A stretch of DNA of 64,000 nt from a virus. The notes beneath the pieces were generated by a model. The model worked only from the letters and a program-made list of their open reading frames with translations, made no database searches and was not told where the DNA came from. Shown piece after piece: positions 4,472 through 14,855 of the stretch (the first letter of the stretch is position 1; every line of letters starts with the position of its first letter). The stretch lies in IMG/VR virus record IMGVR_UViG_3300023243_000351. One strand, written 5' to 3'. The translations under genes and the position numbers were made by a program.

Positions 4472-4992
4472 GTATGTCCTGTTACCTGTAGTGTATAACG
4501 CGGCGTCATGCCCAAGTTAGCCGCAATATGTGGTGTGTTGTACTGCCAAGTTATCACAGATCCTTTACTCCAGCCTGTGTGCGGGACGTTATCTATTTCA
4601 AGATAATGTCCACTTTGCCAGTCTTCCAAAAACACTATGGATCTCCAAATTGACTGCTCTTGTCCTTTTAGATTAAAGATTTCTATATACTTTTTGTACG
4701 TGTCTTGGTGCTTAGGCAAACTTGAGCCTGGCCACATTTTATAGTAACTGGTACAAACATCTTTCCAGTTAAACAGTTTCTCAAATGTGTTAACTATTTG
4801 GTTGTTCCAGGTTGGTTGTGGGGAACGCATATCACATAATTGCCCACCGATAGTCCCATTGTACCCCATATTGCGCCAATGTTCTAGTGTTGCACTATCA
4901 TTGAACTTTTCAATGACGTAATCTAAGTTTTTGTACTCATCATCAATGATATTGCTATCAATATTAAACTGTTTTAAATCTAGTGTTTCCAT
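4468..4992 (-). CDS. 2OG-Fe(II) oxygenase-like protein
   Basis: HQD ... H ... RYTLQVT facial-triad and 2OG-binding pattern. Confidence 0.75.
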   Translation of the reverse strand: METLDLKQFNIDSNIIDDEYKNLDYVIEKFNDSATLEHWRNMGYNGTIGGQLCDMRSPQPTWNNQIVNTFEKLFNWKDVCTSYYKMWPGSSLPKHQDTYKKYIEIFNLKGQEQSIWRSIVFLEDWQSGHYLEIDNVPHTGWSKGSVITWQYNTPHIAANLGMTPRYTLQVTGHT

Positions 4993-6199
4993 AATGTATT
5001 ACTTTATAGTTGTTGTCTATTTTCGGATATGTTCTCCATGGATCAACTATGATGCTTCCTGTAGCAACATCACAATAGAATTCTTGTCGCTTTTTATTTC
5101 CAGTATATCCATATGTGACTTGTCTGTTGTGCGCCAGGAATGCTATAACAGGTTGGTCGGTATCGGTTGCTATATCGTTAGTAAGCGGATCAACATAAGC
5201 AAAGTCTGTACCTTGTTTTTCCAGGTAATACCCAATCAACAAACTATAACTGCCATCCAGTATATCAACGTCGGGCTTGTATGCTTTGCCCATGATGCGT
5301 ACCGGCATGTTGTTTTTCTTTTGCAGTGCTGTTAGGTAACTGGCAACATTTTCTGCTTGTTTTTCCCTAGCATGCATCACAGTGTCAAATATATCGTATC
5401 CGAGATCTAATCTTTCTGCTAACCAACGCAGTGCAATGTTGTCTCTTGGGTGGCAAGGTCCTGCATCTCCCATGCCTGCTTTCATGTACTTGGGACTTAC
5501 AATACGCAGTGTGCTACCTGCTAATGCTTCTGTAACCACATCAACATCAATGTTACCGTTCTTCACTGCAACATCCTGTATCATGTTTACCAGGCCAATT
5601 TTTGTGCTGATGAATGTGTTGTAAAATATCTTTATGCTTTCTGCTTCATCCCATGTGCCAACATTATACTTGGGATCATTTTCCATTAACGGCTTATAAA
5701 AGTTAATAAGTTCTTTTGCGTCACCTGTTTCTGATCCATCTTCTGTACCAATAATAACCATTTCAGGATTAACCATATCCCATGCAACGCTACCCATAGC
5801 AATAAGGTAGGGGTTGTAAACAAAACGTGCTTCTGACACACAATCACGCAACTGTGTCCTTGTAGTGCCGGGTAATACTGTGCTGATTAGCACTACTAGT
5901 GTTTCCTGTCCAACATGTTGGTTTATGTCTGTTAAAACTTGTTTAACTATAGTATAGTCAAAGTCTTTGTTTGCTAAATGTGTAATAGGTCGACTTCCGT
6001 CGTACACAGGATCGTGTGGAGTTTGCACTGCTACGAATACAATGTCTTTGCCTTTAACTGCACCTTCCAGTGAGGGTGATATTTTTATGGTGTCACTTGT
6101 TTTGTTGTAAATATCGTAGCCAGTCACAGAATACTGTGTGGCCATTGCTTCAGCACATGGAAGCCCTAATTTACCTAACCCTATAAAACCTATTTGCAT
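4964..6199 (-). CDS. UDP-glucose/GDP-mannose dehydrogenase family protein
   Basis: GLGKLG Rossmann motif, VQTP, STVLPGTT, AESIKIFYN, GPCHPRD, AYKPD. Confidence 0.9.
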   Translation of the reverse strand: MQIGFIGLGKLGLPCAEAMATQYSVTGYDIYNKTSDTIKISPSLEGAVKGKDIVFVAVQTPHDPVYDGSRPITHLANKDFDYTIVKQVLTDINQHVGQETLVVLISTVLPGTTRTQLRDCVSEARFVYNPYLIAMGSVAWDMVNPEMVIIGTEDGSETGDAKELINFYKPLMENDPKYNVGTWDEAESIKIFYNTFISTKIGLVNMIQDVAVKNGNIDVDVVTEALAGSTLRIVSPKYMKAGMGDAGPCHPRDNIALRWLAERLDLGYDIFDTVMHAREKQAENVASYLTALQKKNNMPVRIMGKAYKPDVDILDGSYSLLIGYYLEKQGTDFAYVDPLTNDIATDTDQPVIAFLAHNRQVTYGYTGNKKRQEFYCDVATGSIIVDPWRTYPKIDNNYKVIHYGNTRFKTV

Positions 6200-6201
6200 T
6201 A

Positions 6202-7428
6202 ATGATCTCCGTTGATAAGTTTAGTTTATTTTTATATGAACAGTTATTAAAACCACTGTCGTTGTACGACGCTGGGTTCTTTCCAAGTTTCAGTACTAAC
6301 ATCGAACATTTTATGTACTCCCAGCATTGCGAAGACTTTTACGGTTCAACTGTTGGACGTTGTATTTGGTGGCATGAAGAACCACTAAGTTACAATGACT
6401 TAGATCAAGTTCGTTACTTTGATGCGTACCATACGCATACCATTGATCCCGGTCACCCAACTGAAAACTATATATGGCCGTCAAGTCCGTCACACCCTTC
6501 AGTTAATATGATGATATCTGATGTTAACTTTCATGTATTAGCTAACTCTGAAGTCAGTCAACAAAAACGAAAGTACCTTAGGGAATGGGGTGTAGCAGAT
6601 TGGTATTTCTTTTTTCATGGATTTGCGGCTCTTGATTGGTTTAGGAACTATAAGTATCTTGACTATTCATACGTAAAACCTACAAAACTATTTATTTGTT
6701 TAAATCACTTGTTGACTAATAATCGTAACTACAGATTATACTTGCTTTCGCAGATAAGTCAAAGAGGCTTAACAGATCTTGGACACATTTCAGCCCCTCT
6801 GTTAACAAGTGATTTAGTTAAGAATGAACTGTTCAACACCAACAGTAGATTACCAGTTGACGCCAAGAAGCACATATTTAAACACCTGGCTAAACAAGCA
6901 ACTCCTAGTGTGCTTGATACTGTTGACTACAACAATGCTAGTGCTGATTTAACATCTTACGGATATGATGCACTGTGGCACGTGGTAACAGAAACTGTAT
7001 ACTATGGTGATAGTTTACACCTTACTGAAAAAATATTCAAACCAATTGTAAGCAAGCGTCCTTTCATACTTGTGGGCGCACCTGGTAACTTGGCATACTT
7101 GAAACGTTATGGCTTTCGTACATTCGATCAATGGATAGATGAAAGTTACGACCAAGAACAAGATCCAACATTGCGTATCAACATGATTGTAGAGCAATTG
7201 TCTAAACTTAAAAACAAAGACATTGCACAACAGCAGGAACAAATGCAAGAAGTGTTGGAATATAATCATCAACACTTTTACGGAAAGTTCAAAGAAATAA
7301 TCGTAGATGAACTGTTAGGTAACTTCAAGAAACAGGTCAATTGGTATAACCATGATCGCATAGAACGACATCGCTTACCAAGTGACGTAATTAACTATGA
7401 GCAAGTACGAAACTTAATGCTCAGTTAG
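6202..7428 (+). CDS. Glycosyltransferase-like protein (ET..TEK..KP family), paralog 1
   Basis: VVTET...LTEKIFKPI...PFILVG...GFRTF...IDESYD, shared with 59911-61083 and 63073-63969. Confidence 0.6.
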   Translation: MISVDKFSLFLYEQLLKPLSLYDAGFFPSFSTNIEHFMYSQHCEDFYGSTVGRCIWWHEEPLSYNDLDQVRYFDAYHTHTIDPGHPTENYIWPSSPSHPSVNMMISDVNFHVLANSEVSQQKRKYLREWGVADWYFFFHGFAALDWFRNYKYLDYSYVKPTKLFICLNHLLTNNRNYRLYLLSQISQRGLTDLGHISAPLLTSDLVKNELFNTNSRLPVDAKKHIFKHLAKQATPSVLDTVDYNNASADLTSYGYDALWHVVTETVYYGDSLHLTEKIFKPIVSKRPFILVGAPGNLAYLKRYGFRTFDQWIDESYDQEQDPTLRINMIVEQLSKLKNKDIAQQQEQMQEVLEYNHQHFYGKFKEIIVDELLGNFKKQVNWYNHDRIERHRLPSDVINYEQVRNLMLS

Positions 7429-7429
7429 T

Positions 7430-9520
7430 CTACTTGGTTGTAGCCACAAATATTCCGTCCCAGGCAGCAGGTAGATCTTGTGTTAGCATATATTCACAGC
7501 GTTCAATCCACATATCATAATACCCATCTATTTGTCCATCAAATGAGCCTTTTAGTTTGTTGCATAAAGTGATTGCTTTGTTAAAACTCTGCTCTCTATA
7601 ATATTGATGCATTTCGATGTGTAACTGTTTGCTTGCTTGCCATGCAGTTGTTTGTTCTTTTTCACCTAGTACAGTGTAGATGCGTATGCCCACAGTTTTA
7701 CCTTTTACTGCAAGTTCGTCTACCTTTAAGTAAAAGAAATCATTCTTGGTTGCATCGTATGTGGTTTCGCCTACAAGTAACAAACATCCATATTCTTTAC
7801 ACTTGCTCTCAATACGTGCCGCAGTACTAACAGCATCGCCTAACACATCATAACTGTGTCTTGACGTACTACCCATTTCACCCAAGTAACCTAGTCCGCT
7901 ATTAATGCCAGCACCCATGCCAATCGGTGGTCTTCCTTCTGCTACAATTTTATCATTGAACTTTTCCACTGCTGTAAGCATGTCCAATCCTGTTTTAACT
8001 GCTGAGTGATGGTGGCGTGGATCATCGTTGGGTGCATTGTGTACATGCATTGACGCATCACCAATGTACTTTATGATCATTCCGTCACGATCCAGTACTG
8101 GTTGCGTAATAGCATCCATGTAGCCGTTCATCAAGTTGGTAAGTCCTTTTACATCATCGCCAAAACTTTCACCTAGTGGAGTAAAGCCACGTAGGTCACT
8201 AAAACAAATACTGATTTCACGCTTCATGCCATCCTTGATTAGACCTGGATTCTCTTGAAGCATACGTACCACTGTAGGACTTGCATAGCCTGCAAACTGT
8301 TTTTTGATTTCTTGCTTTTGTCTAAACTCATCCATGAAGCGCAGGAATGCCGCTATACTCCATGTGAGGAACACTGCAAATATTGGGAAACTCCAATCCA
8401 GCAAATAGCCATCGTTCAAGTATGCTGTCCTACTACCGTAGAATATGCCACCTAATGATACCACAATGCCACCAACACCAAAGTACCAGTTTAGTTTAAG
8501 TACCAGTATCATTACTACCAAACTTATTGCCAGTGCTGTTGCCAGTTCACCAAGGTCTGACCACCATGGGCGACTTATGTTGATACCATTAACTATTGTG
8601 TAAACACTTGCGGCAATTAAATCATGATCATAACTTCTGCCAACTGGAGTTGCAATGGTGTTGTCCAACCCCGACGCTGTTAAACTTAGTATAACAATAC
8701 CGCCATTGAAGTTGGGCAAATTGTCAAATGCAAACTCCTGTACTTTGTATTTGTAGTCTACGTAGATGCTACCGTTTGCGTCTGTCTTAATTGTGCTAAA
8801 CTGTGGGATACGCACTGCTTCCACACCTGCGTCACCCAGCTTCATTTGGTAACTGATGTCACCTGCCAGTACACGCACAATCTCTGTGGGTATGCTGGGA
8901 AATATCTGTGCGCTGTCTGTAGGCTCTTTGCTGGGTATGCGAACAACAAGCGGAAGTTTACGTACAACTCCATCAGCTTCTGTACTGCTCAACATCATAC
9001 CAACGCCCCAAGCACTCTCACCAATTTCTTTTGTTGGACCTATTGCTTGTCCATAACGGAATAGCCAATCTTCCCATGCTTTGCCTGTTGTGCTGTTGTC
9101 CTTAATAGCAATGCCACGTGGTACTGGTACACCCTTGCCTCTCAGCGCAGGAACTTGCCCAACAATAACAGGTGCATTCTGTAACAAATCTATAAATGCA
9201 GGGTCGCCACCAAAGCGATCTTCCTCAGCAAACAGCATGGGCAGTACCACAAGCCCCGCACCATTCTCGTATAGTCGTATAATTTCATTGGCTAGTATGT
9301 CACGAGGCCAAGGCCACTGTCCGTTGCGGTCAATATCATCGTTGTCTATTCTAACCACAGCAATAGGAATGTCGCTGTCTAACTGAATTGTTTCTTGTGG
9401 GACACTACGTTGATGTGTGTCCAGTGCTTTGAGGCGGATAACTTCTACTATCCACGGATCCGTCCACCTAATACTCAATACCGCACCCAGGGCGATCAAC
9501 GCCACTAACCATTTTTTCAT
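7430..9520 (-). CDS. CHASE2-domain class III adenylate cyclase (membrane-bound)
   Basis: N-terminal TM, GQWPWPR and DGVVRKLPL (CHASE2), three TMs, then FSDLRGFT, KYIGD, YDVLGDAVSTAARIES, VKGK. Confidence 0.93.
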   Translation of the reverse strand: MKKWLVALIALGAVLSIRWTDPWIVEVIRLKALDTHQRSVPQETIQLDSDIPIAVVRIDNDDIDRNGQWPWPRDILANEIIRLYENGAGLVVLPMLFAEEDRFGGDPAFIDLLQNAPVIVGQVPALRGKGVPVPRGIAIKDNSTTGKAWEDWLFRYGQAIGPTKEIGESAWGVGMMLSSTEADGVVRKLPLVVRIPSKEPTDSAQIFPSIPTEIVRVLAGDISYQMKLGDAGVEAVRIPQFSTIKTDANGSIYVDYKYKVQEFAFDNLPNFNGGIVILSLTASGLDNTIATPVGRSYDHDLIAASVYTIVNGINISRPWWSDLGELATALAISLVVMILVLKLNWYFGVGGIVVSLGGIFYGSRTAYLNDGYLLDWSFPIFAVFLTWSIAAFLRFMDEFRQKQEIKKQFAGYASPTVVRMLQENPGLIKDGMKREISICFSDLRGFTPLGESFGDDVKGLTNLMNGYMDAITQPVLDRDGMIIKYIGDASMHVHNAPNDDPRHHHSAVKTGLDMLTAVEKFNDKIVAEGRPPIGMGAGINSGLGYLGEMGSTSRHSYDVLGDAVSTAARIESKCKEYGCLLLVGETTYDATKNDFFYLKVDELAVKGKTVGIRIYTVLGEKEQTTAWQASKQLHIEMHQYYREQSFNKAITLCNKLKGSFDGQIDGYYDMWIERCEYMLTQDLPAAWDGIFVATTK

Positions 9521-9541
9521 GTTTTTTCCTTGACTAGGTAT

Positions 9542-10315
9542 TTAGTTTTGGGTAACTGACACAGAACATCCGCCTACTGTCGCACATGATTGCGATAGGC
9601 TATATGTTTGTGCTGTGCTACTGTATTGTGTCAAATCTAAATCTGTTCCGTATGTGCCTGACAGGGAAATTGTTGCTGAATGACTAGCACTTCCACCTTG
9701 TATGATATCTACATCATTGTTGCTGTTTGATATTGTTAGGTCTATAGATTTGTCAAAGTTGTATTCTTGTCTTGCGTAAACGTCATTATAGCTACCATAA
9801 ATGTTAGTAATATTACTATGGTTGTCGCCGCCTGCTCGTTGACTTCCTATGAAACTGTTGTTTGATCCGTGTACATCCAATCTTATATTGTGGCCACCGT
9901 ATTCTACACTGTCAGGTGATTGAAAAGTACCGTCGGCCTGCACATGATATCCCTGCCCTATTTTAATACTGTTGTTGTTACCAGCAACATGGAATTCAAA
10001 CCTGTCGCCTTCGCATGCTAATTGGTTGCATAACTGTTTAATGTCCATATCGTTGGAGTCACCGTCTAGGTCGCCTCCCCATCCAGCACCACTGCCCCAT
10101 GTAGCTGTATACCCAACATAAGCATCATCGCCCTTCTGATCTATAGCCACAGTATTACTGGCACCACCAAAACTGTAATCAATTTCGTTATCACTACCAT
10201 CCACAGTGACCGTTATGCTATTAGAGTTTCCGCTGGTTACTTGGTCAATAGATATTAAGTTATCAGCACTTGCTGTGCTAATAATTAACGATAGTAATAG
10301 TAGCAGTTTATTCAT
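9542..10315 (-). CDS. Curlin-repeat secreted protein (CsgA/CsgB-like) B
   Basis: Start moved to ATG 10315 (MNKLLLLLSLIISTASA signal peptide); repeated x-Q-x-G-x-x-N units; Ser/Gly/Asn/Gln-rich. Confidence 0.75.
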   Translation of the reverse strand: MNKLLLLLSLIISTASADNLISIDQVTSGNSNSITVTVDGSDNEIDYSFGGASNTVAIDQKGDDAYVGYTATWGSGAGWGGDLDGDSNDMDIKQLCNQLACEGDRFEFHVAGNNNSIKIGQGYHVQADGTFQSPDSVEYGGHNIRLDVHGSNNSFIGSQRAGGDNHSNITNIYGSYNDVYARQEYNFDKSIDLTISNSNNDVDIIQGGSASHSATISLSGTYGTDLDLTQYSSTAQTYSLSQSCATVGGCSVSVTQN

Positions 10316-10646
10316 ACTCTGCTGGCCCTTTGTGGAAGTGTCCTTCTGTGCAGTGACGCATTTCGTGCAACCACACACGCATGTCAAGATCTGGCTGCAC
10401 ATAAGGTACAAATACCTCACACCATTTCTTGCCTTCTTCTGTTACACTCCAGCGAGCCCATCCTTTAACCTTTGTGGTTTTTCCAGTATACTGTTCCCAT
10501 GTGGTTTGTATGGTTTCTGGATCCATGATTACAATTTTCATGGTACCATCATAGTATGAGTGTGGTTGATCATAAACATGATGCGGTACACATGCACCTA
10601 ATAGTAAAACTAAACTAATTTTGATTAATAGTAATAACCGTGTCAC
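10308..10646 (-). CDS. Small lipoprotein with HExxH motif
   Basis: Lipobox LLGAC; WLHEMRHC. Confidence 0.6.
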   Translation of the reverse strand: MTRLLLLIKISLVLLLGACVPHHVYDQPHSYYDGTMKIVIMDPETIQTTWEQYTGKTTKVKGWARWSVTEEGKKWCEVFVPYVQPDLDMRVWLHEMRHCTEGHFHKGPAEYE

Positions 10647-11670
10647 TTGCGTTCTCCGTTGTGTGTAATGTTATTGGGCTACCTGCTTGATTCAAGTTCA
10701 TTTGTGTACTGCTGTTTTGGTCAAGTGTAATGCTAAAAATCCTACCGTCAACGTTTCTATATATAAGCCACTCACCATCCAGCACAATCTGTGTGTTACC
10801 TTGTTCATATGCTCCTGGCCTAATAGGATTAGTTGAGAACGAGTCTACCTCTTTAAGCAGTTTTGCATTCATTAAATCTAAAATATTACCCAACATATCA
10901 ACATCAAGTAGGTTAAAGTCTAGTCTTGTGAACACTAACTCGTCTTCATCTAATTCATTGTTGTCAAGAAGATTAACGTCAAGTTCATTAAAATCTAATA
11001 TGGACTGTTCACGTTCAGCCTGAGTCTCGTCCTCTTTTTCTTTTGGCTTTTGTACAATTAACAGGTTGTTAATTTGATTTACATCTAGGTCCAATAGGAC
11101 AGGTGGTGTTGGTACATTTTCTCGTGTGTTGACCATTGTTGCTTGATATGCCTGGTTAAGTATTACCTGCCCTATATCGCTTTCAACAGATATCTCTCCC
11201 ACAGTGCCATCTGCGTTGGGCAACAGTATAACAAGACTCCTGCCTATTTCGTCTACGGTCATGCTGAATGCAGTACCACGCACACCAATACGTGCTGTTG
11301 GTGTTTGTATGTCTACGCTTTGTCTGTTGTTTTTAGCAATCTTACCTGATGCATACTTAACTGTGCCCAAGCCCACTTTCATCTTGAGCTTACTTTTTGT
11401 AGGGTCAGCGGCATCATATATGAAATCATCAATGATTAATTTGCTGTGTTTTTCAATTTGTATTTTGGTATCATCATTGAAGCCAATACCAATAATACCG
11501 TCGGCGGTGCTTATTGTGTCCAGCATCTCTACACCCAGATCTTTTTCTACTGTGATTTTGTCATTATCGCGTGTAAGTTGTGCAGGGCCGGTTTGTTTTT
11601 CAACTGTACCGATCCCTGCATAACACGTACTAATCTGAAACGTTAATAGTAACGCTAGAAGTTGAACCAT
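10615..11670 (-). CDS. FecR-domain periplasmic protein
   Basis: Signal peptide; DTISTADG..I.F.DDT.I...S.L.ID and IQTPTARIGVRGTAF are FecR-domain hallmarks. Confidence 0.85.
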   Translation of the reverse strand: MVQLLALLLTFQISTCYAGIGTVEKQTGPAQLTRDNDKITVEKDLGVEMLDTISTADGIIGIGFNDDTKIQIEKHSKLIIDDFIYDAADPTKSKLKMKVGLGTVKYASGKIAKNNRQSVDIQTPTARIGVRGTAFSMTVDEIGRSLVILLPNADGTVGEISVESDIGQVILNQAYQATMVNTRENVPTPPVLLDLDVNQINNLLIVQKPKEKEDETQAEREQSILDFNELDVNLLDNNELDEDELVFTRLDFNLLDVDMLGNILDLMNAKLLKEVDSFSTNPIRPGAYEQGNTQIVLDGEWLIYRNVDGRIFSITLDQNSSTQMNLNQAGSPITLHTTENASDTVITINQN

Positions 11671-12328
11671 TTGTGTTAACATCTACTGTACTCGCCTCTG
11701 CACCTGATTGAGTAATACTTAGAGTTGAACTGCTGCCGGTATGATTAAGCAGAGTGTCGTGTTGTGAAGCACCACTGTGGGTAACTGTAACGGTGTTGGT
11801 ACTGCCGTCAATGTCAATGTCTGTGGTTTTGTCTAGGATACTAGTTGCTGTGGAATCCTCAGTTACTGTTATAGTATTACTGCCACTGCCGCTGGTTAGG
11901 TCAATGTCTACGTTAACATCGTCAACAAGACTTTGTGTAGCGCCAACGTTTACACCAACAGTGTTTGTGTTGCCTGGATTGGTGATGCTGATTGTAACAT
12001 CATCACTGCCACCGTTGGTGCCTCCTGTAGTACCTACCTGTATGTCAATGTCTGAACTATTGCCATTAGTGGTTGCTGTTACACTGGCGTTGTCGCCGTA
12101 AACATCGTAATCTAATGCATTGCTTGATCCAACTTGGTCAATGTCTAATATGGTGCTGGCGCCATCGCTCTTGCTGTCGTCACCGCTTGCGCCAACGCTG
12201 TTTCCAGAACCGTCTTGATCTATAGTGATTGTGGCTGATGATCCAACCTGATCAATATAGATCAAGTTGTCAGCCCATGCCGGACTGCTTATTAATAAAG
12301 ACATGAATGCTAATGCTATCCTTGTCAT
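11630..12328 (-). CDS. Curlin-repeat secreted protein (CsgA/CsgB-like) A
   Basis: Signal peptide (..PAWA|DN); IDQVGSS/IDQDGSGN repeats of about 22-23 aa; directly downstream of csgG. Confidence 0.75.
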   Translation of the reverse strand: MTRIALAFMSLLISSPAWADNLIYIDQVGSSATITIDQDGSGNSVGASGDDSKSDGASTILDIDQVGSSNALDYDVYGDNASVTATTNGNSSDIDIQVGTTGGTNGGSDDVTISITNPGNTNTVGVNVGATQSLVDDVNVDIDLTSGSGSNTITVTEDSTATSILDKTTDIDIDGSTNTVTVTHSGASQHDTLLNHTGSSSTLSITQSGAEASTVDVNTNGSTSSVTINVSD

Positions 12329-12360
12329 GTGTGTCGCTCCTTTTGGGTGGTCCCCATTAT

Positions 12361-12399
12361 ACGTGCCAATATCTTAGTATTATCGCACGTTAGTATTTA
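12361..12399 (-). promoter_or_regulatory. Late promoter (TAAATA) followed by a 5' leader hairpin upstream of curlin A
   Basis: TAAATA at 12394-12399; ACGTGC...GCACGT inverted repeat 12361-12390; SD AAGGAG near 12337-12342. Confidence 0.6.
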
Positions 12400-12437
12400 A
12401 ATAATAAGTTGCTATCATTAAATATGTATGTTATACG

Positions 12438-13256
12438 CTAGTCTACGTAATTACTCCATCCTGTTGATTTATCATCTAGCATAGTGTAATCCCATAGTTT
12501 TTTACGTTTTCCTTCTTTGGTTAACTCAATTACTGCTTGTTCAACTGCCTGTTTTACTGCATAATTAACTGGTTCATTGGTACTGGTACCTGACTCTACC
12601 TCTAGAACTTGTGTGCCTTGATCGTAGAATTTAAACACGTTTATGCCAAGACTAGTGCTTAAAATCGTCTTTTCGGTGCTCACATTTAGCAATACTTCTC
12701 CCGACAGTACACTTACCGCTCTAAGCCCTATTGTGACTACATCTACACGCCATTCTTGTTGTGCACCAATGCCCATAACCCTGGCACCAATACCACCTGT
12801 AAATTTGTTTGTATCATAACCAATAATGCCGCCTTCGATTATAATACCAGCAAACTTCATTGCACCCAATTTCTGTTTCTCATCAAACTCACTTCGTGCA
12901 TTACGTATAATCTGTCTTTCTTTGATTAGGTTGTCCAGGCCATTGCGCTCTACAACATCAAAAAACTCACCATCTGCTAGTGCCATTAGTGCATCTATTA
13001 AGTATACTTCTGCACCTTGTGTTACTGCTGTACTGATGTTGGCAATGTTATCTGCTGGTTTACGTTGTCCAGTCTTATCTTGGAAACTGTATATTGCAAC
13101 TGTCACAGGCTGTCCGCCTTTAATTGCAGGGAAATTAATTAAATGTTTCTTGACTGGGGTTTCAGCAAGCTCAGCTGGTCTGCCAAGTTTTGGATTAGTC
13201 GAGGCGCAACCAACTAACAAAAAAACCAATAACGCCACACATATTCTACCTAGCAT
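12438..13256 (-). CDS. csgG: Curli secretion channel lipoprotein CsgG
   Basis: Lipobox LLVGC; AIYSFQDKTGQRKP, STAVTQG, VVERNGLDNLIKERQIIR, EGGIIGYD, NEPV. Confidence 0.93.
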   Translation of the reverse strand: MLGRICVALLVFLLVGCASTNPKLGRPAELAETPVKKHLINFPAIKGGQPVTVAIYSFQDKTGQRKPADNIANISTAVTQGAEVYLIDALMALADGEFFDVVERNGLDNLIKERQIIRNARSEFDEKQKLGAMKFAGIIIEGGIIGYDTNKFTGGIGARVMGIGAQQEWRVDVVTIGLRAVSVLSGEVLLNVSTEKTILSTSLGINVFKFYDQGTQVLEVESGTSTNEPVNYAVKQAVEQAVIELTKEGKRKKLWDYTMLDDKSTGWSNYVD

Positions 13257-13265
13257 GCATCTCCT

Positions 13266-13808
13266 TTAAAAGGCAAAACTGGCAACAGGAATTTCAACCT
13301 TCGTAACTGATCCATCTGTTTGCGTTACGTTTAATGTTACTAGGTCGTCGGTCATTTCATAAGCCACTGTATTGCCTAGTAGATCAATAGTACCACTACT
13401 TTGTGGATTTTCCCCAAACAGTTTGTCTGAAATTTGCTTACTAAGTTCAGCATAGATTCTACTTTCTAAATTAGCCAAGAACTTATTAACATTAGAGTTT
13501 TCTTTTTCACGCTCAATTTCTCTTGCCGCGGACTCTAACTTAGATTTGATTTCTGCTCTTCTAGTGTGTGTTAGGTTTTCAATGGTCAACACATGACTAC
13601 TGTAGCCTATACCGTTAAAACTAGGGTTATTAAACTTATAAGTTAAGTCGCCTGCTGTTGCCGCACTGATAAAAAACATGCCCACAAGGAATCCCATAAT
13701 AAAACTCCAAAAGCCAAAACTCAACACTGTTGATATAGTATAGGTTACTGGGTTGGACTTTTTAAACTTCTGCCAGGCTGCCTTTTCATAACTACTTTGA
13801 TGATTCAT
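13266..13808 (-). CDS. csgF: Curli assembly protein CsgF-like
   Basis: After the hydrophobic segment: LTYKFNNPSFNG; F..NLESRIYAELS; C-terminal DGSVTKVEIP; adjacent to csgG. Confidence 0.82.
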   Translation of the reverse strand: MNHQSSYEKAAWQKFKKSNPVTYTISTVLSFGFWSFIMGFLVGMFFISAATAGDLTYKFNNPSFNGIGYSSHVLTIENLTHTRRAEIKSKLESAAREIEREKENSNVNKFLANLESRIYAELSKQISDKLFGENPQSSGTIDLLGNTVAYEMTDDLVTLNVTQTDGSVTKVEIPVASFAF

Positions 13809-14121
13809 TTTTTGTTTTAGCTCCTTGGTCCTTGACCTGTTTTAGTTTTAGTTCTAATTCTTGTGCTTTTTGTAAATTTGCTCTAGCTTTTGCATCTAGT
13901 TCAAGAATCATGTTTAACTTTTGGTTCAGTCTAATTAAATCGTTATCAAGCATACGAATTCTGTCAATCAACGCAATCAGCGTCATTTGTGCTTCGCTTA
14001 GTACAGGATCAATTTCTTTTGTTGCCCAGGTCCATATGTAATATACAAAGTACCCTAACCCACACGCGGCTATAATCGGAAAACCATATTGGTTTATTGC
14101 GCCGGCTACATCAATGTCCAT
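13792..14121 (-). CDS. Small single-TM/coiled-coil protein (paralog of 14138-14419)
   Basis: GFPIIAACGLGYFV; LIDRIRMLDNDLIRL. Confidence 0.7.
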   Translation of the reverse strand: MDIDVAGAINQYGFPIIAACGLGYFVYYIWTWATKEIDPVLSEAQMTLIALIDRIRMLDNDLIRLNQKLNMILELDAKARANLQKAQELELKLKQVKDQGAKTKNESSK

Positions 14122-14137
14122 TTAGTAGCCTCTCATT

Positions 14138-14419
14138 CTAGTCGCGACGAGCATCGTTCTTGCCGTCTGCTCTAGCAATACGGTTCAAGTCTGGTGTTAC
14201 CCCAAATGCATTGCTCATGAGTGTGTCAATACGAATCACGTCATGGTTCATGGTCTTAACACGATTGTCCAATGCGTTAATTATTCCTGTAAGTCCTTTT
14301 ACACTGCCCATTACACCGTCAAGGATAAAGCGCATAGTAAGGAATACAAAGTACCCGCCGGCCAGTGCCGCGGCGATAGGAAAACCAACTTCGGCAATCA
14401 ATTGAAGTATTTCTGTCAT
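14138..14419 (-). CDS. Small single-TM/coiled-coil protein, first gene of the curli operon
   Basis: GFPIAAALAGGYFV; LDNRVKTMNHDVIRI; SD AAGGAG and TAAATA (14443-14448) upstream. Confidence 0.7.
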   Translation of the reverse strand: MTEILQLIAEVGFPIAAALAGGYFVFLTMRFILDGVMGSVKGLTGIINALDNRVKTMNHDVIRIDTLMSNAFGVTPDLNRIARADGKNDARRD

Positions 14420-14489
14420 TTTGAATAGCTCCTTCTTTAGTGTATTTACCCAAATTTTTACAGTTTACTCATGGGCTATAAATAATTAC

Positions 14490-14855
14490 ATGAGAAAACT
14501 ACTACTATTACTGCTGTTAGTGCCATTTATAGCACAAGCAGAATACGCAGACTGGGACAAATACGATAAAGAATTATTCTGGATGTCAACCACAGCTATT
14601 GCAGTTGACCACTTGACCACAAGAGATATGGCTAGTAGATATGATGAAGGATATCGGGAACGCAATCCAGTGCTGGGAGAGCACCCAGACAAGGATACAG
14701 TGGATTTGTTTTTTCTAGTAAACTATGTTACACACTACTACCTGACAGATTATTTTCAAGGGGAACACAGACCTGTGTACTTGATGACTAGGCTAGTAGT
14801 TAATGGAGCGGCTTCTATTAATAACGTTAAGATTGGTCTTGGAGTACGATTTTAG
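14490..14855 (+). CDS. Secreted/membrane hypothetical protein
   Basis: ATG 14490 lies 5 nt after TATAAATA (14477-14484); signal peptide MRKLLLLLLLVPFIAQA; ends in RF. Confidence 0.65.
   Translation: MRKLLLLLLLVPFIAQAEYADWDKYDKELFWMSTTAIAVDHLTTRDMASRYDEGYRERNPVLGEHPDKDTVDLFFLVNYVTHYYLTDYFQGEHRPVYLMTRLVVNGAASINNVKIGLGVRF

Follow-up and report, generated by a model that had tools for sequence, protein, structure and literature searches.

A phage curli export module joined to FecR and a CHASE2 adenylate cyclase: a candidate trans-envelope cAMP signalling system

Why would a phage carry genes of the bacterial curli export machine side by side with a membrane-bound adenylate cyclase? The question is raised by a DNA stretch of 64,000 nucleotides from a marine phage (IMG/VR record IMGVR_UViG_3300023243_000351, hereafter the window), in which positions 7430-14419 hold nine co-directional open reading frames (ORFs), all on the minus strand. 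In the order of reading, they encode two small transmembrane paralogs (TM1 and TM2), CsgF, CsgG, a first curlin (curlin A), a FecR-domain protein, a small lipoprotein with an HExxH motif, a second curlin (curlin B) and an adenylate cyclase with a CHASE2 domain. A preliminary description made from the sequence alone had given this order and these identities, and it was right in both, the sole correction being the start of curlin B, which moves to 10315. It had also read the locus as a trans-envelope signalling system based on cyclic AMP (cAMP), a reading that is plausible. We propose a functional coupling of the curli export machine to an envelope sensor made of FecR and CHASE2, which would set cAMP synthesis, with the TM pair as a possible link to the output, and we give this proposal an even chance of being correct. 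It rests on what was observed, namely which genes are present, their topology signals, their linkage and their bacterial counterparts.

The phage genes are one conserved, co-inherited module. Linkage was counted only at loci with enough flanking sequence, taken from 80 IMG/VR loci seeded with FecR and 78 further loci seeded with a CsgG profile. On the FecR-seeded phage contigs, the cyclase was present at 54/54 loci and CsgG together with CsgF at 68/68; on the CsgG-seeded phage contigs, FecR was found at 59 of 59 loci and the cyclase at 40 of 40. The possibility, raised in the preliminary description, that cyclase and FecR might be unlinked to the csg genes in relatives is therefore not borne out, linkage being complete. 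The same holds for cultured phages: TM1 occurs in six of 50,697 GenBank phage records (four of Melnitz and two of HTVC008M), and CsgG and a full-length CHASE2 cyclase accompany it in 6/6.

A search with the cyclase protein retrieved Methylophilales phage Melnitz (53% identity) and Pelagibacter phage HTVC008M (35%). Both carry the same genes in the same core order (gp97-104 of Melnitz, MZ577097; HTVC008M, KC465899), without the HExxH gene. The Melnitz proteins, annotated as CsgF, CsgG, two curlin-repeat proteins, a FecR-domain protein and a cyclase, are 28-68% identical to those of the window. Compared with this pelagiphage module, the lineage of the window adds the lipoprotein gene between FecR and curlin B, has a curlin B without PA14 head and has a cyclase that falls in a clade with Ser in place of a catalytic Asn. 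Since a megablast search with the whole cluster gave no match to GenBank phages at the DNA level, the window belongs to a genome that is new but of a known type.

The module itself is already published, and newness is limited to the mechanistic reading and to some added details. A csgF/csgG cluster was first reported in pelagimyophages by Zaragoza-Solas et al. 2020 (PMC7029224), which confirms the statement of the preliminary description that these genes had been reported in marine myophages. In podo- and myo-pelagiphages, Wittmers et al. 2022 (PMC9599517) described the set "HK, HK, CsgF, CsgG, CsgA/B, FecR, CsgA/B, AC" (HK, histidine kinase; AC, adenylate cyclase), detected viral curli proteins at each of the 65 stations of a global survey of ocean viromes, and suggested FecR and AC as regulators as well as an iron role for FecR. 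As the same gene set, with the same putative regulators, is thus on record, the system is not newly discovered. CHASE2 is never mentioned by Wittmers et al. 2022, who state that FecR, HK and AC are not within bacterial type VIII secretion operons. Finally, a pore acting in lysis timing has been proposed for CsgG/CsgF by Buchholz et al. 2022.

Contrary to that statement as regards FecR and AC, we found chromosomal clusters in bacteria. A scan with a FecR profile, made on one genome per prokaryote species, retrieved csgF-csgG-curlin(s)-fecR-CHASE2 cyclase arrangements in metagenome-assembled genomes (MAGs) of Henriciella (L091, L092) and Caulobacteraceae (L086, L087). The Henriciella cluster L091:6466-12489 is surrounded, on a 397-kb contig, by genes for TonB-dependent receptors and for metabolism, and in the Caulobacteraceae MAGs the cluster (in L086 at 7086-13106) neighbours genes for acyl-CoA dehydrogenase and methylmalonyl-CoA mutase. 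Three of the clusters (L086, L087 and L091) are complete; their proteins are 28-50% identical to those of the window and are encoded in the same order. The five core genes therefore appear, from their arrangement, to form one unit in cells too. Unlike the phage module, these bacterial copies are flanked by ordinary metabolic genes and are without TM1 and TM2. They are rare: a search with the FecR profile at a strict threshold, made in 401 Alphaproteobacteria and in 201 genomes of the family of the Henriciella reference genome, retrieved no copy other than that of this genome itself. A cyclase tree unites the phage and bacterial copies in a single clade (100/100) that excludes the other alphaproteobacterial FecR-linked CHASE2 cyclases, and it places the four bacterial copies in a clade of their own, sister to L093, a contig of phage-like gene content. 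The deep branches are unstable, the HTVC008M clade shifting between a quick and a careful tree, so that transfer may have gone either way between phages and bacteria.

Pairing of FecR with CHASE2 extends beyond the curli genes. We collected 68 bacterial loci having an ORF with a FecR domain that resembles the phage ORF and counted as neighbour any CHASE2 gene within 1.5 kb. Such a neighbour was present at 21 loci, on the same strand in 20 of these, with a cyclase output in 7 and another output in the others, in agreement with the earlier claim that CHASE2 cyclases occur with FecR-domain proteins in bacteria. A Burkholderia study (PMC5192318) likewise paired FecR with a CHASE2 histidine kinase. 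In the COG4254-type FecR and CHASE2 kinase pairs of Burkholderia and Pseudomonas (PMC5192318), as in the alphaproteobacterial FecR and CHASE2 cyclase pairs, the gene of a secreted FecR adjoins that of the CHASE2 protein on the same strand, and the phage has the same arrangement. FecR with CHASE2 is thus a general bacterial gene pair, whatever the output domain, and by its gene neighbourhoods a probable envelope sensor. The phage pair differs by its position inside a curli operon, whereas the bacterial pairs often come with an OmpA-like lipoprotein or a LysM domain. Indeed, at several loci, all non-alphaproteobacterial (L097, L100, L103, L111, L115, L125 and L137), an OmpA-like lipoprotein gene stands between FecR and CHASE2; its product of ~200 aa bears a C-terminal NRRVEV motif, and the layout would span the envelope. 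This suggests that FecR, the OmpA-like lipoprotein and CHASE2 may form a three-part envelope sensor in bacteria.

The phage cyclase has the layout expected of a membrane sensor: an N-terminal membrane helix, a periplasmic CHASE2 domain at ~20-322, three membrane helices, a cyclase domain at 433-609 and a conserved C-terminal tail. PF05226 covers residues 11-337, identifying a CHASE2 sensor, and the hydrophobic segments lie at ~323-396. The motifs FSD, KYIGD, YDVLG and AAR align to CyaB 3r5g and to 6fht. Two metal-binding Asp, the Lys-Asp pair that specifies adenine (ATP) and the catalytic Arg are kept in 65/65 phage homologs. The transition-state Asn of the class III motif (GxxVNxAxR) is replaced by Ser in the window (GDAVSTAAR), so that the full class III signature was not found. 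On this basis, the phage cyclases fall into two classes: the first, with YD(V/I)LGDxVSTAAR, an Asp specificity residue and Ser for the catalytic Asn, comprises 24 of the 65 homologs (the motif lies at residues 557-572 of the cyclase of the window), and the second, with Y(S/T)xxGDxVNLAxR and the canonical Asn, the other 41/65. Because the substitution is conserved across a diverged clade, the Ser form looks like a putative working variant.

With a cleavable signal peptide and neither membrane segment nor anchor, the FecR protein, which is encoded in the same module as the CHASE2 protein, looks as expected for a secreted member of a sensor pair. Its AlphaFold2 (AF2) model comprises a confident beta domain at residues 24-195, similar to the sensor domain of PupR, a conserved acidic Leu/Asp linker of ~85 residues (~200-286) with low model confidence, and a small C-terminal beta domain ending in ITINQN. 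For the first domain, Foldseek retrieved 4m0n and 6ovk_R at probability 1.0; both are periplasmic anti-sigma domains, 6ovk_R being PupR in complex with its outer-membrane transducer. The C-terminus (LNQAG, then ~20 residues, then ITINQN) was compared with the last repeat of curlin A (hhalign P = 0.003, 10% probability), and with an AF2 predicted local distance difference test (pLDDT) score <50 in this region, the likeness to a curlin repeat is a hint only. A complex prediction of FecR 24-355 with CHASE2 20-322, using alignments, gave a score of 0.00, which speaks neither for nor against binding. A regulator of the FecIRA type was considered and rejected: the protein lacks the cytoplasmic anti-sigma part and the membrane anchor, and neither an extracytoplasmic function (ECF) sigma factor nor a TonB-dependent transducer was found among the nine cluster genes. 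The iron-regulator label is unsupported because these other parts that define FecIRA are missing. We therefore view FecR as a probable sensor partner and not as an iron regulator, with only its periplasmic domain in common with the FecIRA type.

On the export side, CsgG scores 173 bits against PF03783 (cut-off 20.8), as a CsgG-family outer-membrane lipoprotein, and is 46% identical to CsgG of HTVC008M; it is the predicted type VIII secretion channel. CsgF scores 67 bits against PF10614 (cut-off 25.8) and belongs to the CsgF family. The segment FNNPSFNG is legible near its N-terminus, and by our reading its putative mature N-terminus, DLTYKFNNPSFNG, is similar to the NPxFGG segment by which E. 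coli CsgF binds CsgG. Where translation starts is uncertain, an alternative Met being located at ~13697. Curlin A has a signal peptide and IxIDQxGxxN repeats. Its Curlin_rpt score lies under the Pfam cut-off of 20.7, and its AF2 model is a beta-solenoid (pLDDT 84.7). Foldseek gave no match of this model in the PDB at E <= 0.001; a wider search with VIA-align then gave CsgA of Pontibacter (8c50) as best match, with Z 19.4 and a high root-mean-square deviation of 8.4 A, and E. coli CsgA (8enq, Z 12.6) as next. Curlin A thus models as a secreted CsgA-like beta-solenoid subunit. Curlin B is assigned to the same kind of secreted subunit by its Curlin_rpt score, which is over the cut-off. Its start is the ATG at 10315, overlapping the stop of the lipoprotein ORF, and the same 257-aa gene call is made in three independent metagenome assemblies; its signal peptide ends in ASA|DN and its conserved C-terminus reads C-x5-C-SVSVTQN.

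The homologs of curlin B differ at the N-terminus. That of HTVC008M (L002:7658-8983) carries a PA14 domain that passes the Pfam cut-off, a second one (L062:9091-10419) a PA14 match below the cut-off, and a third (L071:9058-10710) an F5/8 type C (discoidin) domain; the curlin B of the window has no PA14 or discoidin head. PA14 and F5/8 type C are carbohydrate- or ligand-binding folds. The heads appear to have been swapped between phage lineages, and such variable heads would fit a surface-displayed binding element serving adhesion or sensing.

Compared with the csgBAC-csgDEFG genes of E. coli and Salmonella, the phage shares the CsgG lipoprotein channel, CsgF and CsgA-like curlin-repeat subunits. 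It differs in that no CsgE, CsgC or CsgD was seen in the cluster, in having longer subunits with divergent repeats, and in its coupling to FecR and a CHASE2 cyclase; its genes are laid out in the alphaproteobacterial manner. No ORF of the cluster gave a Pfam match to CsgE or CsgD, as the preliminary description had noted. According to Wittmers et al. 2022 (PMC9599517), alphaproteobacterial curli loci are also without these two genes, and therefore CsgE and CsgD do not define the wider curli family.

TM1 and TM2 are paralogs, each with an N-terminal membrane helix followed by a conserved amphipathic helix (LIALIDRIRMLDNDLIRL in TM2). TM1 is predicted to be a single-pass inner-membrane protein (hydrophobic segment ~11-33). 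The "HK" label of Wittmers et al. 2022 does not fit these small proteins: no Pfam match was obtained at E <= 0.1, neither HisKA nor HATPase_c was detected, and with 93 and 109 aa they were judged too short for a histidine kinase, a candidate that we reject. Eight of 22 members of the TM family match the holin family phrog_4898, weakly (best E-value 1.2e-4), and no endolysin or spanin gene adjoins the pair; the possible holin-like character is a lead, not a finding. With a median identity to relatives of 53-56% (TM1 53%), the pair is the most conserved part of the module (FecR 44%), and both paralogs are present in 33/34 phage loci with enough flank. No match to TM1 or TM2 was found anywhere in the four bacterial genomes that have the module, and the pair is, to judge from this distribution, a phage addition.

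Taken together, the locus is a phage copy of the mobile "viral type VIII secretion" module known from pelagiphages, with two proposed functional halves that are always co-inherited. In the first half, the outer-membrane channel formed by CsgG and CsgF would let the Sec-exported curlins A and B reach the surface of the infected cell. In the second, the secreted FecR protein and the inner-membrane cyclase with its periplasmic CHASE2 domain would constitute an envelope sensor, in which FecR would pass on to CHASE2 a cue from the periplasm or the outer membrane. Most simply, this cue would be either how curlins are moving through CsgG or a ligand caught by the curlin B fibre, and cAMP synthesis in the cytoplasm would be raised or lowered in response. 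If an output such as lysis timing is connected in a way peculiar to the phages, TM1 and TM2, which only the phage versions possess, would be the best candidates for that connection. There is a precedent for a cyclase that receives its signal by way of the outer membrane: the CHASE2 cyclases CyaD1, CyaD2 and CyaK of S. meliloti sense an extracellular protein via the outer-membrane protein NsrA (PMC13001267, PMC7529298); the preliminary description had named this precedent, and the literature bears it out (PMC13001267). CHASE2 cyclases are common to the phage and to S. meliloti, where they signal to Clr. The phage differs in that none of the nine cluster genes encodes an NsrA-like beta-barrel receptor, the outer-membrane component would be CsgG instead, no receptor of the Clr/CRP type was found in five phages with the module, and few likely hosts have one.

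Several observations weigh against the proposed coupling. No cyclic nucleotide-binding domain (cNMP-binding, PF00027) was found in five module-carrying phage genomes. Among 151 Pelagibacteraceae, this domain is present in 10 and a class III cyclase in 3; hosts of the SAR11 type mostly lack the usual cAMP-CRP route. The scarcity of cAMP receptors weakens any reading in which host transcription is reprogrammed or curli genes are switched, and points to another receiver. In the same way, the earlier suggestion that cAMP would adjust host metabolism finds no obvious receiver. Moreover, the podophages are reported to have the second curlin and the cyclase "frequently", not always (Wittmers et al. 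2022, PMC9599517), so that FecR may act without the cyclase. The replacement of Asn by Ser across the 24 homologs may alter cyclase activity. Finally, we infer every contact between FecR, CHASE2, CsgG and the curlins, as well as the cue and the output.

Other readings of the same genes have to be weighed with ours. The published view (Wittmers et al. 2022, PMC9599517; Zaragoza-Solas et al. 2020, PMC7029224) gives the module two jobs, in which the fibres gather cells into clumps ("sibling capture") or protect them against other phages, and FecR and the cyclase only regulate how the fibres are expressed or assembled. The presence of the full fibre-export set (CsgG, CsgF and two curlins with signal peptides) agrees with it, and the lectin heads of the curlin B homologs fit an adhesin. 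However, no clumping was seen in Melnitz cultures (Buchholz 2022), no CsgD was seen in the cluster, and control of transcription by cAMP needs a receptor of the CRP type, with the scarcity described above; we consider this view unlikely, though worth keeping in mind. The pore reading (Buchholz 2022; Zaragoza-Solas 2020, PMC7029224), according to which a gated CsgG/CsgF pore serving lysis timing or nutrient uptake is the point of the module and the curlins are secondary, could draw on the weakly holin-like TM pair and on a cluster in which no CsgE gate was seen. It has to explain why both curlins, FecR and the cyclase are kept with the pore at every tested locus, and why the module also exists, without the TM pair, on the chromosomes of bacteria, which do not aim at lysis. 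We see only a slim chance for it. An iron-sensing or iron-uptake module with FecR as ferric citrate regulator, which has in its favour the name of the Pfam family and the suggestion of Wittmers et al. 2022 (PMC9599517), is scarcely credible given the signal peptide and the missing FecIRA parts already described; the conserved neighbour is a CHASE2 protein, as in bacteria with kinase or cyclase output.

The preliminary description went beyond the coupling proposed here in supposing that surface curlins sense contact or superinfecting virions, that FecR relays this and that cAMP adjusts lysis timing or host metabolism. The variable lectin-like heads of the curlin B homologs (PA14 and F5/8 type C), the place of the curlin B gene between fecR and the cyclase gene, the NsrA-CyaK precedent, the resemblance of the TM pair to holins and the acidic FecR linker, whose length would by our estimate span the periplasm, all go in this direction. 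But the curlin B of the window has no head domain, cAMP receptors are wanting in the five phages and few in Pelagibacteraceae, nothing connects cAMP to the TM pair, and transmission of signals by amyloid-like fibres is not known, so that we hold this version to be distinctly improbable. A bolder reading, on which we would place still less weight, is a self-contained sensory organ working in a host almost without cAMP signalling of its own: a curli stalk with a lectin-like or other tip would act through FecR and CHASE2 on cAMP, and a non-canonical phage receiver, for which the holin-like TM pair is a candidate, would set the time of lysis or block superinfection.

The module is spread ocean-wide according to Wittmers et al. 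2022 (PMC9599517). Reading FecR/CHASE2 as a standard pair, the five genes as a unit that is also chromosomal, the TM pair as non-kinase proteins and the likely hosts as poor in receptors turns the vague label of "regulator" into testable steps. Does cAMP rise on infection, what binds it, and does the cyclase depend on the secretion machine?

The coordinates of the genes and of the upstream TAAATA boxes are given in Table 1.

Table 1. Features of the curli/FecR/CHASE2 cluster, in order of reading on the minus strand, with TAAATA boxes at the end
Feature	Position	Strand	Details
TM1	14138-14419	-	93 aa; phrog_18771 1.1e-30; holin phrog_4898 1.2e-4
TM2	13792-14121	-	109 aa; phrog_18771 3.3e-30
CsgF	13266-13808	-	PF10614 2.2e-18; phrog_35372 6e-40
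CsgG	12438-13256	-	PF03783 6.8e-51; LVGC lipobox
Curlin A	11630-12328	-	232 aa; Curlin_rpt 16.3 bits; solenoid model
FecR protein	10615-11682	-	PF04773 1.5e-8; signal peptide
HExxH lipoprotein	10308-10646	-	112 aa; GTG start; LGAC lipobox; HEMRH motif
Curlin B	9542-10315	-	257 aa; Curlin_rpt 22.2 bits; signal peptide
CHASE2 class III adenylate cyclase	7430-9520	-	PF05226 9e-32; PF00211 9e-18
TAAATA box	14443-14448	-	23 nt before TM1; followed by AAGGAG ribosome-binding site
TAAATA box	12394-12399	-	in the 110-nt csgG/curlin A gap; 65 nt before curlin A start
TAAATA box	9539-9544	-	18 nt before cyclase start

The three TAAATA sites of the cluster precede TM1, curlin A and the cyclase. Across the window, the hexamer is not over-represented (52 sites for 72 expected), and on the minus strand of the whole window 19 of its 33 sites lie 0-45 nt upstream of an ORF start, where ~2 are expected and where control hexamers of the same composition have 1-9. 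TAAATA is a real positional upstream signal. The phage probably uses it as a promoter element, one that differs from the T4 late box TATAAATA, none of which was found on the minus (coding) strand inside the cluster. The "late-type TAAATA promoters" of the preliminary description thus keep their box, which is real and strongly positional, and lose the "late-type" label, which is not supported.

The HExxH lipoprotein is the variable element of the locus. Inserted between fecR and curlin B in this lineage only, it is absent from 82/82 related loci, and its homologs amount to three clusters among 5.8 billion proteins. It gave no match to Pfam, to a PHROG with a function or to a PDB sequence, and it occupies the same position in three independent metagenome assemblies.

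Scans of the window detected no tRNAs and no Rfam families. The window also contains genes for ribosomal protein S21, which is core to pelagimyophages according to Zaragoza-Solas et al. 2020 (PMC7029224), and for Hsp20. Divergent from the cluster, the ORF at 14421-14855 (plus strand) encodes a ~120-aa protein with a signal peptide (MRKLLLLLLLVPFIAQA) and without Pfam or PHROG match. Downstream of the cyclase lie a 408-aa ORF without family match (6202-7428, plus strand) and a UDP-glucose dehydrogenase gene (4964-6199, minus strand; phrog_9148 7e-97). At the position of these two genes (window 4964-7428), Melnitz and HTVC008M have tail and baseplate genes.

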